DNA from: Vulcanimicrobiota bacterium
GTDB lineage: Bacteria; Vulcanimicrobiota; Vulcanimicrobiia; Vulcanimicrobiales; Vulcanimicrobiaceae
Assembly (NCBI GenBank): GCA_963812155.1
Contig: CAWETW010000001.1
Span: forward strand, 32,001-96,000
DNA length: 64,000 nucleotides
Direction: 5' to 3'
Shown: piece by piece, positions 6,594 to 15,375 of the stretch
Numbering within the stretch: position 1 is the stretch's first letter
How the letters are laid out: every line of letters starts with the position of its first letter
Translations under genes and position numbers: made by a program
The notes under the pieces: model-generated
Databases searched by the model: none
What the model saw: the letters and a program-made list of their open reading frames with translations, nothing else
What the model was told of the DNA's origin: nothing

Positions 6594-7217
6594 ATGACCT
6601 GGAGTGCGGTGCTCGATATCGTCTTTCCGCCGCAATGCGCCGGGTGCAACGCGCTCGGCAGCGGCTTGTGCCGCGTCTGCGCGCCACTTTCCGGTACCGC
6701 GATCCGTCTGGGTCTTCCGCACGTTGACGTCAGGGCGTACGGCAGGTATGAAGGCGTCGTGCGTTCGGCGATCTTGGCGTTAAAAGACGGACGGCGCGAC
6801 GTGGCCGACGCGCTGGGAGAACGCATCGCGCCGCTCGTCGCATCGCAAGCGTTGCTCGTTCCGGTGCCCACGACTGCGAGGCGCATTCGCGTGCGCGGCA
6901 TGGATGGCGTCGCGCTGCTCGCGTGCCGCGCGGCAGAGATTGCCGGGGCAACGGTCGTCGCGGCGATGCGCCAGCGGGCGGGGGACGCGCAGCGCGGGCG
7001 AACTCGCGAGGAACGTCTGGCCGCGCGCGGACGCTTCGTCTGCGACGCATCGCTGATCGCACGCCGCCGCGTCGTGTTGATCGACGACGTCTGCACGACG
7101 GGCGCAACGCTCGCCGATTGCCGCCAGGCGGTCGTCGATTCAGGCGGATTCGTCGCAGGGGCCGTGGTTGCGGCCGCGACGAAAAGCGGGGCCTCGTGGA
7201 TGTCCCTGCCCGACTGA
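6594..7217 (+). CDS. comF: ComF family protein (zinc ribbon + phosphoribosyltransferase domain)
   Basis: FPPQCAGC...LCRVC, LVPVP, PRPP-binding VLIDDVCTTGATL. Confidence 0.9.
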   Translation: MTWSAVLDIVFPPQCAGCNALGSGLCRVCAPLSGTAIRLGLPHVDVRAYGRYEGVVRSAILALKDGRRDVADALGERIAPLVASQALLVPVPTTARRIRVRGMDGVALLACRAAEIAGATVVAAMRQRAGDAQRGRTREERLAARGRFVCDASLIARRRVVLIDDVCTTGATLADCRQAVVDSGGFVAGAVVAAATKSGASWMSLPD

Positions 7218-8309
7218 CCGCGCGCGACCTCCTCTATTTAGAGCGCGCCTACGAGCTCGCCGCGCGCGGCACCGGTAGCACCGCACCCAACCCGCCGGTC
7301 GGAGCGGTCGTGGTGCGCGACGGCGCCATCCTGGGTGAGGGCTACCATCGGCGCGCCGGGTGCGCGCACGGCGAAATCGTTGCGCTCGAGCGGGCCGGGG
7401 CGGCGGCACGCGGAGCCACGCTGTACGTATCGCTCGAACCGTGCGTTCGACGCCGGGCGCGTGCCGGCGTGCGCGCCGCGCGTGATCGACGCCGGGATCG
7501 CGCGCGTCGTTTGCGGCGTCGTCGATCCCAATCCCGCAAATGACGGCCGGGGCATCGCGTATCTTCGCGAGCGGGGAGTGGACGTCTCCGTCGCCGGGGA
7601 CGCACGCGCGCGCGAACTCATCGAACTCTTCACCGGCTCGATCGCCTCGACGCGCCCGTATCTCGCGTTGAAGATGGCGATGTCGCTCGACGGCGCGATT
7701 GCGTCGCGTTCGGGCGTGCGCGAACAGCTCGGGTCGGAAGCCGAGCGGCTTTACGTGCGCGATCTGCGAATTGCCTACGACGCCGTGATGGTGGGTGCCG
7801 GAACCGTCCGTGTCGACGACCCGCAGTTGACCGTACGTCCGCACCACGACCGTCTGCGGCCCTATGTGCGCGTCGTCGCGTGCGAAACCGAAACCATTGC
7901 GGCCTCGAGCCGCGTTCTCGCTGCGGTGGATGGATATTCGCCGACGATCGTGCTGGCCCCGGCCGGCCTGCGCCGGCGGTTCGAGAATGTATCCGGTGCG
8001 GCCGACGTCAAGTTCGTCGGAAGCGCCGAGAGCACGCATCTCGACCTTCGCAGCGCGATGGAGACGCTGCGCGAGGCCGGCGTCTACAGCGTGCTCTGCG
8101 AGGGCGGCCCGACGCTGGGAGCGCGGTTGATCGTGGACGGCCTCGTCGAACGCTTTTACTGGGCGATCGCACCGCGGCTGATCCGAAGTGAAACTGCCGT
8201 TCCAGTTTTGGCCGGCGTCGATTTTGCGACCGTGCACCCGCGCCTGCAGTTCGATCGCGCGCACCGCGTCGGCGACGACGTCGTTATTTCGGGACGATTC
8301 GTTGTTTAG
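7196..8309 (+). CDS. ribD: Riboflavin deaminase/reductase RibD, frameshift near 7450
   Basis: PNPPVGAVVV, AHGEIVAL, YVSLEPC in ORF 6923; LKMAMSLDG, VGAGTVRVDDPQLT, VLCEGGPTL in ORF 7335. Confidence 0.92.
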
Positions 8310-8892
8310 CGGGATTGTAGCGCATCGCGGCGTCGTGGTGGCAAACGACGCACTGTCCGGCGGCGGAGCCCGGCTGTGCGTACGCTGCGATGCCGCCGCG
8401 GATGAAGGCGTCGAGCCGAAGGATTCGGTCGCGATCGACGGCGTCTGCCTCACCGTGACGAATGTCGATTCCGGCTTGCTCGGCTTCGACGTCGTGCCGG
8501 AAACGCTGGCGCGCAGCACGCTCGGCGACCGCGTGCCGGGCGACCGCGTGAATCTCGAGTTTGCGGTCCGGGCCGGCGACCGTATCGGCGGCCACTTCGT
8601 CTACGGGCACGTCGACGCGGTCGCGCGCGTGCTCGCTCGCGCACCCGAAGGACAAGGCGAGCGCGTGCGCTTCGAACTTCCCGCGGCACTCGCGTTCGGA
8701 ATCGTCGAGAAGGCATTCGTGGCGATCGACGGCGTGAGCCTCACGGTGGCCGCGGCCGGCGACGACTGGTTCGAGGTCGCGGTGATTCCCGAAACGCTCG
8801 CGCGCACGACGCTCGGCGAACGCGCCTCCGGCGGCATGGTAAACCTCGAAATCGATCCGATCGCACGCTACGCAGCCGGCAGACGAACGTGA
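8302..8892 (+). CDS. ribE: Riboflavin synthase (alpha chain)
   Basis: TTG start giving (M)FSGIV; SVAIDGVCLTV, VNLE, GGHFVYGHVD, IDGVSLTV, IPETL. Confidence 0.95.
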   Translation: MFSGIVAHRGVVVANDALSGGGARLCVRCDAAADEGVEPKDSVAIDGVCLTVTNVDSGLLGFDVVPETLARSTLGDRVPGDRVNLEFAVRAGDRIGGHFVYGHVDAVARVLARAPEGQGERVRFELPAALAFGIVEKAFVAIDGVSLTVAAAGDDWFEVAVIPETLARTTLGERASGGMVNLEIDPIARYAAGRRT

Positions 8893-11427: not shown

Positions 11428-12708
11428 CTACGGCGAACCCTCCACGTACGGCATCGGTGCGCCTTCGGGAATCGGCAAGACGACGTCCTTGTCCGCCGTG
11501 GTGACCCGCCACGCGACGATGAGCGCGACGAGATAGAGCATCGCCGCCAAATACCACGGGGCGCCTGGAACTCCGACATTTCGCCACGGGCCGATGAACT
11601 GCGCGAACACTGCGGTGAAGAGTCCGGGCCCGAGCAGCATGGAGATGCCGCGCAGCGAGCCGAGCGCACCTTGCAGTTCGCCCTGGTCGCTCGCGCTCAC
11701 GTGACGCGTCATCAAGGCTTGCGACGTCGCGTTGTACATCGGCAGACAGATGACGACGATTGCGACGAAAAAGAGAATTCCGTTGGCCGTGCCCGCGAGC
11801 GCGCAGCCGGCTACGGCCAAGGCGAGGCTGGCGAGCAGCACGCGGCGCTCGCCGAACCGGGCGACAACCGGCCCGACCAGCGTCGCTTGATTGATTGCGG
11901 TGATCACGCCGGCGAGTGCGAGCGTCAGTCCGATGCTTCCGGTGCTCCAGCCGAAGACCGCGATGCAGAAGATCACCCACACGTTCGGGAAGATTTCGTG
12001 CGCGAGATATCCGATAAAGTTTACCCACGACAATCCCCACAGTTCGTGGTGTGACCGCAACAGCGCGAGCGATCCGAGCGGATTGGCGCGCTTCCATTCC
12101 AAGCGCGGCGTGCGCTGCGCCGGCGCGAGCGATTCCGGAAGCACGAACAGACCGTAGAGCGTGTTGAGCAGGCTGACGGCCGCGGCAGCCCAGAACGTGA
12201 GGCGTGGATCCAGGTTGCCGACGAGCCCGCCGATGGCCGGTCCGAGAATGAATCCAAGGCCAAACGCGCTTCCGAGCAAACCGAACGCTTTGGCACGTTT
12301 CTCCGGAGCGGTTATGTCCGCAATGTATGCCCCCGCCGTCGACATGTTCGCGCTCGCCATGCCCGATAGCACGCGCCCCGCGAAAAGCCAGAGCAAATTC
12401 GGTGCCAGCGCCATGATGGCGTAGTCGACGACGCTAACCGCGTTCGAGAGCAAGATGACGGGGCGCCGCCCGACGCGATCCGAAAGCATTCCGAGCAGCG
12501 GCGACATGAAGAACTGCATCACCGCCCATGCCGTCGCGAACAGACCGATGACGGTGACGGCGTGCGCCATGTTTTCACCGACGAAGCCGGCGACGAGTTT
12601 CGGCAACACCGGTCCGATCATGCCGAACGTCAGCATGTCGAGCATGACCGTGATGAAGATAAAGGCGGTCGCCGCGCGGCGTCCGGACCCGGCGTTAGGC
12701 AACGTCAT
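11428..12708 (-). CDS. TCR/Tet family MFS efflux transporter
   Basis: Motif A GMLSDRVGRRPVIL, motif C GFILGPAIGG, QGELQG; 12 TM segments; ATG 12708. Confidence 0.92.
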   Translation of the reverse strand: MTLPNAGSGRRAATAFIFITVMLDMLTFGMIGPVLPKLVAGFVGENMAHAVTVIGLFATAWAVMQFFMSPLLGMLSDRVGRRPVILLSNAVSVVDYAIMALAPNLLWLFAGRVLSGMASANMSTAGAYIADITAPEKRAKAFGLLGSAFGLGFILGPAIGGLVGNLDPRLTFWAAAAVSLLNTLYGLFVLPESLAPAQRTPRLEWKRANPLGSLALLRSHHELWGLSWVNFIGYLAHEIFPNVWVIFCIAVFGWSTGSIGLTLALAGVITAINQATLVGPVVARFGERRVLLASLALAVAGCALAGTANGILFFVAIVVICLPMYNATSQALMTRHVSASDQGELQGALGSLRGISMLLGPGLFTAVFAQFIGPWRNVGVPGAPWYLAAMLYLVALIVAWRVTTADKDVVLPIPEGAPMPYVEGSP

Positions 12709-13297
12709 CGTGCGTCTCTTTCGTAGCGGAAACGTGATCGAGCGAGGAGAGCCAAAGATCCACGGCAAGGTTCACTCGCGCGCGGTCGCCCGTCGCGCAC
12801 AAGTCGAGGAGGAATCCGCGGAAGCCGGCGACCAGCAGCGTGGCGTGGGCGCGCCCCTGTTCGGGGGTGTAACCCGAGCGCATGCAACAGGGCTCGAGCG
12901 CCGTAAGCCAGTCGTCGACGGCGCGCTCGAGGAAACCCGGGAAGCGCGTGCGATCCTGCAGCGCGAGCGCGTAGACTTCGAAGAACAGCCGCATCAGCGG
13001 CAGCCAGCGAGCGTCGCTGAAGTGGTGCCATAGCGTGCCCGCGATCCCGCGCGGTCCCAGTCCGGCGGTCAGGTCGAGGTTCGCCATGGTGGCCTGCTGG
13101 CGCAGGCGCCCACGCCGGATGATCTCGACGACGAGAGCCTCTTTGGACCCGAAGTAGTAGAGCAAAAGCCTCGGGCTGGCCCCTGCGGCTTTAGCTAATG
13201 GGCGAAGGGAAAGTCCGGCTAGCCCCTTCTCGAGCACGTAGTCGAGGGCGCGGTCGAGCAGTTCTTCCCGGCGGGCGTCGTCGGCAGTGCGGGGCAC
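12695..13297 (-). CDS. TetR/AcrR family transcriptional regulator
   Basis: GLAGLSLRPLAKAAGASPRLLLYYFGSKEAL helix-turn-helix. Confidence 0.93.
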   Translation of the reverse strand: MPRTADDARREELLDRALDYVLEKGLAGLSLRPLAKAAGASPRLLLYYFGSKEALVVEIIRRGRLRQQATMANLDLTAGLGPRGIAGTLWHHFSDARWLPLMRLFFEVYALALQDRTRFPGFLERAVDDWLTALEPCCMRSGYTPEQGRAHATLLVAGFRGFLLDLCATGDRARVNLAVDLWLSSLDHVSATKETHDDVA

Positions 13298-13303
13298 GTC
13301 TCG

Positions 13304-13337
13304 AGGCTACCATACTTGAAACAGTCGTTTCAAGTAT
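13304..13337 (-). promoter_or_regulatory. tetR promoter with 11-bp inverted-repeat operator
   Basis: ATACTTGAAAC-AGTC-GTTTCAAGTAT at 13312-13337. On the minus strand: TTGAAA-18 nt-TAGCCT, ending 6 nt before the GTG start. Confidence 0.8.
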
Positions 13338-13425: not shown

Positions 13426-13457
13426 GGTTGACAGTTGTCAACCAGCGGCCGTACGCT
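13426..13457 (+). promoter_or_regulatory. XRE-ribBA promoter with palindromic operator over the -35 box
   Basis: GGTTGACA-GT-TGTCAACC at 13426-13443; TTGACA 13428-13433, 18-nt spacer, TACGCT 13452-13457, ATG at 13465. Confidence 0.75.
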
Positions 13458-13464
13458 CACACAG

Positions 13465-14878
13465 ATGGAGACGTTTGCGGAGCGGCTGAGAGCCGCGATG
13501 GATAGCGCGGGCTTGAACCCTTCCGATTTGGCGGCAAGCAGCGGGTTGACGGAATCGGCGATCTCGCTGCTGCGCTCCGGCCGGCGGGAGCCGTCGTACC
13601 GGACACTCCAGCGGCTGGCACACGTGCTGCCCGAACTGGCGGCGCATCTCGCGGGCGCGACGAGTCCGTTCGACCCAATCGAAGAAGCAATCGCCGACGT
13701 TCGTGCCGGCAAGATGGTCGTCGTGCTCGACGACGAGGATCGTGAAAACGAAGGCGACTTAGTCATGGCGGCCGCCGCCGTCACGCCCGATGCGATCAAC
13801 TTCATGCGCAAACGACGCCGGCGGCTTGATTTGCGTGCCGCTGCCGGCGCGCCGGCTCGACGAACTGCAGATTCCGCAGATGGTGAGCGACAACACGGCG
13901 CTCCACGAGACCGCCTTCACGGTGTCGGTGGAGGCGCGCGGCTTGACGACGACCGGAATTTCCGCGCACGATCGCGCCGCGACGATCAAAAAACTGCTCG
14001 ACCCCGACGCGCGGCCGGCCGACTTTCTGCGGCCGGGGCACACCTTTCCGCTGCGCGCGCGTGAAGGCGGCGTGCTCGTCCGCGCCGGTCAAACCGAAGC
14101 CTCGGTCGATCTCGCGCGTTTAGCCGGGCTCTATCCCGCCGGCGTAATTTGCGAGATCATGGCCGACGACGGAACGATGGAGCGTTTCGACGGTCTGCGT
14201 GCTTACGCCGATCGCCACGGTCTGAAACTCGTAACGGTGAAAGATCTCATCGCCTATCGCATGCGCACCGAAAAACTCGTCAAACGCATCGCCGAGTTCG
14301 ATCTCCCGACCAAGCACGGCAGCTGGAAAGGCATCGCCTACGAAACCACCATTGACGCAAACACGCACGTCGCACTGGTGATGGGCGAGATCGGCGACGG
14401 CAAGAACGTTCCCGTGCGGGTGCACTCGGAATGCCTCACGGGCGACGCGCTGCATTCGATTCGCTGCGACTGCGCCGCGCAGCGCGACGCCGCGATGGAG
14501 ATCATCGCCGCCGAAGGACGCGGCGTGTTTCTCTATCTGCGCCAAGAAGGCCGGGGCATCGGCCTGGCCAACAAACTGCGCGCCTACGAGTTGCAAGACC
14601 GCGGCGCCGATACGGTCGAGGCCAACGTCGCGCTCGGCTTACCGGTCGATAAGCGCGATTACGGCATCGGATCGCAGATCCTCGTCGATCTCGGCGTGCG
14701 CGAGTTGCGCGTCATCACCAACAATCCGCGCAAGATCTTCGGCCTCGAAGGCTACGGACTGAAGATCGTCGATCGCGTGCCCTCGCAGACGGCGCCGACG
14801 AATTACAACCGGCGCTACATGCATACGAAACGCTCGAAGATGGGGCACATTCTCGACGACCCGGCAGCGGTATCGTGA
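13465..14878 (+). CDS. ribBA: XRE-HTH domain fused to bifunctional DHBP synthase/GTP cyclohydrolase II, frameshift near 13812
   Basis: FAERLRAAM...[31 protein letters not shown] is in frame with [18 protein letters not shown]; then [33 protein letters not shown] in ORF 13790. Confidence 0.93.
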
Positions 14879-15375
14879 AGACAAACGGGCCGGCGTCCTC
14901 GCTGCCGCACGGCGTGCCGGATTGCGCCGGCCGGCGCTTCGCGATCGTCGCCGCGCGTTTCTACCCCGAACTCGCCGAGTGGCTCGTCGACGGGGCACGG
15001 CGCGGGCTGCGCGCGTGTAACGTTGCCGACGCCGATATCGACGTCTACGATGTCCCCGGCTGCTTCGAACTTCCGCTGGCATGCCGCAATCTGCTCGACA
15101 CGCAGCGGTACCACGCCTTGATTGCGGTGGGAGCGGTCGTGCGCGGAGAAACGCCGCACTTCGATTACGTCGCGGGCGAGTGCGCGCGCGGCATCATGGA
15201 CGTGCAGTTGGCGACGGGTGCGCCGATCGGGTTCGGCGTGTTGACGACGGAAACGTACGAACAAGCGAAGGAGCGAGCGGATCCCGGCAACGGCGACAAA
15301 GGCTACCATGCCGCCATGGCGGCGGCGGCGTTGCTCGGGATGACGGCGCGCCTTCCCCGAGCAGGTCTTCGATAG
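14875..15375 (+). CDS. ribH: 6,7-dimethyl-8-ribityllumazine synthase
   Basis: IVAARF, VPGCFELP, GAVVRGETPHFDYV, FGVLT, KG..AA.AA. Confidence 0.95.
   Translation: MKTNGPASSLPHGVPDCAGRRFAIVAARFYPELAEWLVDGARRGLRACNVADADIDVYDVPGCFELPLACRNLLDTQRYHALIAVGAVVRGETPHFDYVAGECARGIMDVQLATGAPIGFGVLTTETYEQAKERADPGNGDKGYHAAMAAAALLGMTARLPRAGLR

Follow-up and report, generated by a model that had tools for sequence, protein, structure and literature searches.

The window, i.e. the whole stretch of 64,000 nucleotides from a Vulcanimicrobiota bacterium that was analysed, carries a gene in which a helix-turn-helix (HTH) domain of the XRE/Cro type and the riboflavin enzyme RibBA are joined in one open frame, which runs without any stop from an ATG at 13465 into the N-terminus of RibB. 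The original prediction had read this junction from the letters, and both the frame-1 translation and Pfam confirm it: HTH_3 covers aa 8-55 (E 1.5e-8, above the cut-off), DHBP_synthase starts at aa 73, and the remainder of DHBP_synthase together with GTP_cyclohydro2 is found in a second frame. The locus is composed as follows.

13426..13443, no strand: candidate palindromic operator, core TTGACA-N2-TGTCAA at 13428-13441, family consensus cTTGACAnnTGT(T/A/C)AAg
13428..13457, plus strand: predicted sigma-70-type promoter, leaderless, with -35 TTGACA (identical with the left half-site) and -10 TACGCT
13465..13632, plus strand: XRE/Cro-type HTH domain (aa 1-56), from Pfam HTH_3, predicted fold and conservation
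13633..13662, plus strand: variable linker (aa 57-66), of low conservation and low pLDDT
13663..14269, plus strand: RibB (DHBP synthase) domain, a predicted dimer module, with a metal-ligand His replaced by Gln class-wide
13813..13815, plus strand: one extra base, absent from L002, L003 and the X1 contig
14273..14878, plus strand: RibA (GTP cyclohydrolase II) domain with the zinc motif HSEC-x-TGD...CDC
14875..15375, plus strand: ribH (lumazine synthase), from Pfam and TIGR00114, overlapping the ribBA stop

The change of frame inside ribBA is caused by one extra base at about 13813-13815, hence downstream of the junction, as had been proposed, at a point where the passage from HTH to RibB is already continuous. 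As this base is missing in the two closest relatives (L002 and L003) and in a read-derived 316-nt contig of run X1, a possible source sample whose contig has three other differences, it is likely an assembly error. Intact frames of 466-486 aa are found in relatives.

Upstream of the ATG lies the inverted repeat GGTTGACA-GT-TGTCAACC (13426-13443), which includes the hexamer TTGACA (13428-13433); TACGCT (13452-13457) follows after a spacer of 18 nt, and the ATG comes 7 nt later. All of these positions and spacings check. A promoter had been predicted to overlap the palindrome, and of this claim the arrangement TTGACA-18-TACGCT stands, whereas a consensus promoter scanner called no promoter at the fusion because TACGCT fits TATAAT only at 3/6 positions; the promoter call thus rests on the conservation in relatives that is described below.

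With an HTH_3 score of 34.9 bits at a cut-off of 23, the N-terminal domain belongs to the XRE/Cro-C1 group, and the predicted fold of its first 65 residues matches P22 c2 (Z 10.4, rmsd 2.5, 65 aligned), with which C.AhdI, ImmR and DdrO tie at Z 10.2-10.4. Its recognition region follows the pattern GLTE[SA]AIS[LY]LR.G.REP with nearly invariant residues, and among 93 full-length proteins this region (aa 27-43) has a mean conservation of 0.91, as compared to 0.89 in RibB and 0.86 in RibA. The linker (aa 57-71) reaches only 0.53 and differs in length by 5 aa, and in a structure predicted from 100 aligned sequences (mean pLDDT 77.8) residues 63-66 are below 50. Such a variable, low-confidence linker argues against a tight allosteric coupling of HTH and RibB. 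No stand-alone donor of the HTH could be identified, as other XRE proteins share at most about 50% identity with it, and close short matches, which were considered as free-standing HTH proteins, turned out to be fragments or pieces of frameshifted fusions wherever their sequence was visible. In 10 of 105 loci, the window's copy not being one of them, there is a start codon inside the linker. The Met just ahead of RibB helix 1 in L036-L040, L171 and L189 is likely the ancestral start, and an HTH-less isoform may possibly arise there from internal initiation.

The intact relative L002 scores 620 with PRK09311 (NF006803; cut-off 569) and exceeds the cut-offs of TIGR00506 and TIGR00505. Both sets of catalytic motifs had been regarded as intact. 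This holds for RibA, where among 33 full-length proteins HSEC-x-TGD...CDC is found in 32 and QEGRGIG in all 33, so that these are not RibBX proteins, but in RibB one residue deviates: DRENEGD, the Cys, TGISA-x-DR and PGH are kept, and the His of R-x-G-H-T-E is Gln (RAGQTE, about 14081-14092). This metal ligand, His154 in Vibrio cholerae, has been exchanged for Gln in 90 of 93 fused proteins and also in 17 of 17 RibBA proteins of the sister family (seen across L043-L062); the five copies of the outgroups and two extra ones (L041, L063) retain His. In V. cholerae RibB, activity is reported to be lost in a His154Ala exchange (PMC5228156). No second ribB was found in the window's genome, which is 84% complete, and because this is the sole copy found and the other motifs are invariant, the Gln variant is probably active. 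The idea of RibB as a dead sensor domain was abandoned, since the same exchange occurs in the unfused enzymes of the sister family and is hence unlinked to the fusion.

RibB is described as a homodimer whose active sites lie at the interface and whose loops close on the substrate (PMC10366380). Two copies of aa 1-268 are predicted to dimerise with a score of 0.87 (best of three controls 0.00), in which contacts agree in at least 98% between runs at a pLDDT of at least 89; 20 of 30 solved pairs and one of 23 single chains attain the mark used for this score, and the value probably reflects a likeness to solved RibB dimers. All named interface residues of the model belong to RibB and none to the HTH, which speaks neither for nor against contacts between the HTHs, since residues that the prediction leaves unnamed are uncertain. 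A pH-dependent monomer-dimer switch has reportedly been found in the RibB domain of Mycobacterium tuberculosis. A search of the ESM Atlas returned DHBP synthase clusters only. Seven of 11 clade-specific RibB positions lie in the predicted interface (nominal p 0.002), and they were not counted as fusion-specific because HTH-less copies, e.g. L041, have them too and several match the RibBA of M. tuberculosis or Acinetobacter.

Fused loci belong to Candidatus Eremiobacteraeota/Vulcanimicrobiota, namely to Vulcanimicrobiaceae and Baltobacteraceae (best 80 of 224 matches, one HTH pattern). A stop between HTH and RibB in relatives would have spoken against the fusion, and what is found is an in-frame fusion in 105 of the 106 distinct loci among 121 HTH-bearing ones, the exception being a contig end. 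Among 61 relatives, a combined HTH and RibB match is present in 35 of the 37 that belong to the own family (the other two are cut by contig ends), in 5/5 from the order's second family and in 0/19 from the other family of the class. Order-wide, 326 of 353 genomes match, about 315 of them with E <=3.3e-28, which was read as a continuous HTH-RibB match, given that single-domain matches do not go beyond 1.6e-23 among the best 150 places listed. The remaining 11 comprise three genomes that truly lack the HTH (G129, G182, G196), four cut at contig ends, the unclassified G419, and three (G334, G418, G447; 63-88% complete) whose frame is broken at or close to the HTH-RibB linker, one with further breaks, which we read as sequencing errors. 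In a sample of the phylum, nothing above RibB-level scores was obtained for all 22 sister-family genomes and for 13 from two other families, and five of these 13 outgroup genomes that were read directly have no HTH. Judged from these comparisons, the fusion is a mark of one order of the Vulcanimicrobiota (Eremiobacterota) and not of the phylum. The suggested search for the HTH plus DHBP_synthase architecture was also positive: 427 of 1131 candidates in a protein database match, and among the 120 listed proteins all have PF00926 and 115 have an HTH label as well. Their names are those of plain RibBA, and also the source names shown for fused proteins ignore the N-terminal HTH. A few fused records are labelled as other phyla, with 70-75% identity and identical layout, and these labels are taken as errors. 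The tallies of range include the unpublished genomes G033 (one of the contig-end cases), G035, G048, G059, G235, G277, G312, G400, G406 and G417, with no claim resting on unpublished genomes alone.

The palindrome was expected to be conserved wherever the fusion is, and this could be examined without circularity by anchoring on TTGAC[AG] 33-39 nt upstream of the start, after which the opposite half-site was scored (two unpublished loci are left out of the anchored and matrix counts). Anchoring succeeds in 97 of 101 loci, of which 89 have a perfect right half TGT-N-AA and the other eight deviate from it by one base; the four unanchored loci have a variant palindrome 29-31 nt upstream of the start. 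As a control, 79 pairs of -35 and -10 elements in the window's genome contain a perfect right half only once, which is the ribBA site itself. A forward -10 (TAnnnT at 16-19 nt) is present in 90/97 anchored loci, usually with a spacer of 16-18 nt. With the start codon mostly 6-8 nt 3' of the -10 and no AGGAG or GGAGG in any of 99 loci, the ribBA mRNA is predicted to be leaderless, beginning at or beside the ATG.

The site is also largely unique. The window's genome contains 205 TTGACA hexamers, and only the one at ribBA is followed two bases on by TGTCAA (both strands); no single-mismatch version of TTGACA-N2-TGTCAA was found among them. A search for other operator copies had been proposed, and a matrix scan of this genome finds none that reaches the training minimum of 16.1 bits, as the ribBA site scores 23.6 bits and the runner-up 15.4. 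Matches to the strict palindrome pattern, almost always a single one per genome, were obtained in 44 of 60 genomes of the own family, 5/5 of the second family and 6 of 32 of the sister family, and those own-family genomes that miss it include genomes with variant sites and HTH-less ones; the reversed pattern gives 7 matches in 101 genomes. One strict site per genome, located at ribBA, is thus the rule, and 15 extra pattern matches gave no hint of a wider regulon, with none beside a gene readable as a rib gene. L033 and L032 have a degenerate second palindrome about 30 nt upstream of the first. In L148 and L149 (G015:C129, G034:C41) a second operator has the upstream flank seen at many ribBA promoters and no ribBA behind it, in one case preceding an aldo-keto-reductase-like open reading frame, and these operators may be relics of rearrangements or captured targets.

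A predicted contact of HTH and site may have left a trace in their sequences. At HTH residue 42, which may be the counterpart of E44 in P22 c2 (a residue covered in PMC4267663), E or Q goes with A/T at operator positions 6/9 at a ratio of 84:3, and other residues do so at 5:7; these counts come from kin and not from independent events, and the covariation is a lead only. Where E42 is exchanged for S, T, K or M (L026, L028-L030, L032, L082, L133), the operator tends to carry G/C at these positions.

Loci that have no HTH serve as natural controls. All 101 fused training loci have matrix scores of at least 16.1 bits, and 12 of 15 further fused loci score 15.4-27.4 bits (three were not scored), as opposed to 1.0 bit or less in 28 of 29 HTH-less loci (one not scored), so that the palindrome is absent from all 28 scored HTH-less rib loci. 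The clearest such locus is G129, where the HTH is missing and the promoter is retained as TTGACA-17-TAGCCT-6-ATG, with GTTTGC where the right half-site would be, and in G182 and G196 both HTH and site are absent. No HTH of the fused type was detected elsewhere in these three genomes, with one weak unrelated XRE match in G196. A quick tree of 72 enzyme sequences nests the HTH-less copies of G182, G196 and G041 among the fused ones (SH-aLRT 96-100); it omits G129, and L175, labelled HTH-less in it, is merely truncated. One gain of the fusion followed by three or four losses can be inferred from these sequences, and as the genomes are kin, the counts reflect about that number of events and not 100 independent ones. 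Outside the order, in sister-family and outgroup genomes, ribBA lies directly after ribE in most cases and has no HTH. Within the order, a promoter of its own precedes the gene and ribH follows it, and promoter and site move with ribBA while the upstream neighbour differs widely. L041 (G041:C136) and L056 are extra HTH-less ribBA copies, one of them a fragment, whose genome carries the fusion besides, and the gene end ahead of them reads like a flavin oxidoreductase.

From the comparison of these loci it appears likely that the fusion represses its own operon, ribBA-ribH, by binding to the predicted operator over the -35. The dimerisation of RibB would pair two HTH domains, the fusion dimer on the palindrome would cover the -35 and keep sigma region 4 off, and ribBA-ribH would thereby be shut down by its own product, which would result in a homeostat on the first committed steps with a feedback set mainly by the amount of enzyme. 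Whether more than the level is sensed can be stated with much less certainty. Repression by level-sensing only is a fair contender at somewhat below even chances, and it is slightly favoured in view of the apparently loose tether and the single operon covered; also, no flavin site on RibB or RibA is known to us. The other version, in which RibBA would be a metabolite-gated transcription factor and occupancy of the RibB interface site by substrate, metal or proton would switch the HTH pair, is tentative and yet kept close behind because of the precedents and the active site at the dimer interface. The gating by a flavin, GTP or Ru5P that the original prediction had added as a possibility gains no direct support from these loci.

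Other readings of the same locus have to be weighed against autorepression. The fusion might bind the site and activate transcription, which we regard as unlikely. Some Cro/C1-type proteins do activate beside a -35, and the -10 of the window is only a 3/6 match; also the archaeal RbkR activates when unliganded (PMC5397151), and wBmxR1/R2 activate a ribA reporter (PMC3518464). The left half-site, however, is the -35 hexamer itself and near-consensus, and the promoter design persists without the HTH in G129. Moreover, the spacers have an ordinary length of 16-18 nt, unlike those of MerR-type activated promoters, which are long. Still somewhat less probable is that a separate factor, e.g. of the CRP/FNR type, binds the palindrome and that the HTH does something else. 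CRP/FNR-type boxes indeed resemble TTGAC-N4-GTCAA, and similar 14-mers occur at other promoters in a few genomes, where 3 of 15 that were examined adjoin genes that are ArsR-like by translation, but TTGAC-N4-GTCAA is found only once in the window's genome, one strict site per genome at ribBA is the rule, and the site is gone in every scored HTH-less copy. The three ArsR-like cases (L145, L147, L153; sister and own family) probably represent an unrelated operator.

The right half-site could also be the -35 of a divergent promoter or an element of promoter strength, with the HTH as a mere passenger, and for this speaks that TGTCAA is TTGACA on the minus strand, that a divergent tetR lies upstream in the window, and that the called upstream open reading frames are divergent in 43 of 88 loci. 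A minus-strand -10 at the right spacing exists, however, in only 2 of 97 loci as compared to the 90 with a forward -10, the right half reads TGTTAA or TGTAAA in 68 of 99 loci, tetR has its own palindrome at 13313-13336, and a passenger HTH would hardly keep its recognition residues nearly invariant; a divergent promoter is thus already largely refuted, and we consider this reading very improbable. That the fusion is an artefact of assembly or chance, or the gene a pseudogene, is suggested by the frameshift in the window's ribBA and the apparent one in its ribD, but with the intact 466-486 aa frames of relatives, the 115 of 120 listed database proteins that combine an HTH label with PF00926, and the X1 contig that has no extra base, it can practically be dismissed.

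The control of riboflavin synthesis in bacteria is known mainly through FMN riboswitches. The predicted leaderless ribBA transcript has no room for this usual device, and no Rfam family has a match in the window and RF00050 none in two overlapping sets of 61 and 41 genomes, with 7 of 14 control genomes being positive. The contrast to riboswitches that the original prediction had drawn holds insofar as fused genomes have none, but it is weak, as RF00050 is also missing in the fusion-less sister family (0/19). A replacement of the riboswitch by the fusion was therefore rejected as evidence, RF00050 being missing with and without the fusion.

The closest known system, which the original prediction does not name, is RbkR of archaea. 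It also has a DNA-binding HTH on a riboflavin enzyme, in this case the CTP-dependent riboflavin kinase that ends the pathway, and it senses FMN, activates rib genes when unliganded and is released by FMN, with a regulon of multiple genes (PMC5397151). In contrast, the fusion is bacterial, has an XRE HTH on the first committed enzymes RibB/RibA, and is linked to one operon by a site with the geometry of a repressor, and as its domains are HTH_3, DHBP_synthase and GTP_cyclohydro2 with no kinase domain, it does not belong to the RbkR family. From plain RibBA (PRK09311) it differs by the extra 66-aa N-terminal HTH and the His-to-Gln exchange at one RibB metal ligand. The N-terminal HTH of NadR is likewise XRE-like. 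NadR, BirA and PutA are enzyme-repressor fusions in cofactor and amino-acid metabolism (PMC5397151); their catalytic domains are unrelated, and ligand control has been shown for these three. The Wolbachia proteins wBmxR1 and wBmxR2 are HTH proteins that bind a ribA promoter and activate a ribA reporter, and they differ in being separate proteins and activators with another site, which act also on type IV secretion genes (PMC3518464). That no XRE-RibBA regulator has been described agrees with our search of the openly accessible literature, which found no description of an HTH-RibBA fusion; RbkR-type surveys could mention one in subscription journals, regulon databases or supplements. A review of riboflavin regulation from 2025 treats riboswitches for bacteria, and the terms 'helix-turn-helix' and 'autoregulat' are absent from its text (PMC12542839).

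HTH-RibBA thus appears to be a conserved and apparently undescribed enzyme-repressor fusion with a predicted operator that is well supported by comparison. It combines an enzyme with a regulator, and its predicted operator at pathway genes tracks the HTH on comparative evidence, so that, by analogy, it is like a trigger enzyme, with a new pair of domains. If this is correct, the short list of trigger enzymes gains a new enzyme family, with a parallel to the archaeal RbkR that is made from unrelated parts, and the proteins behind hundreds of database entries with the plain name RibBA would turn out to be bifunctional. The regulation of rib genes in lineages without riboswitches is largely open, and where many bacteria use an RNA switch, the fusion offers a concrete protein-based answer for one order of soil bacteria. 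The predicted circuit would consist of one protein and one site, with feedback on the first committed enzyme and with natural loss variants that serve as controls. The origin of the regulator by fusion would be recent and traceable, and with it a new promoter would have separated ribBA-ribH from ribD-ribE. In case of gating, this would make it the first regulator of riboflavin synthesis to sense pathway entry, i.e. the supply of Ru5P or GTP, or the pH in these acid-soil bacteria, rather than FMN.

As to the neighbouring genes, ribH follows the fusion in 66 of the 72 loci with a called downstream open reading frame and is likely co-transcribed with ribBA as a target of the control. About 4.6 kb upstream (window about 7200-8892), behind a ComF-like gene, are ribD and ribE, and ribD appears to be frameshifted near 7450, probably by another assembly error. 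No copy of the operator was found at ribD-ribE in the window's genome, and hence the proposed control would cover only part of the pathway. Between them and ribBA, at 11428-13336, there are a divergent gene of the TetR family and an MFS efflux gene that is TetA-like and below all tet family cut-offs. The palindrome of tetR, TACTTGAAAC-N4-GTTTCAAGTA at 13313-13336, is predicted to be a conserved TetR operator, and its core pattern occurs in 34 of the collected loci, duplicates included.
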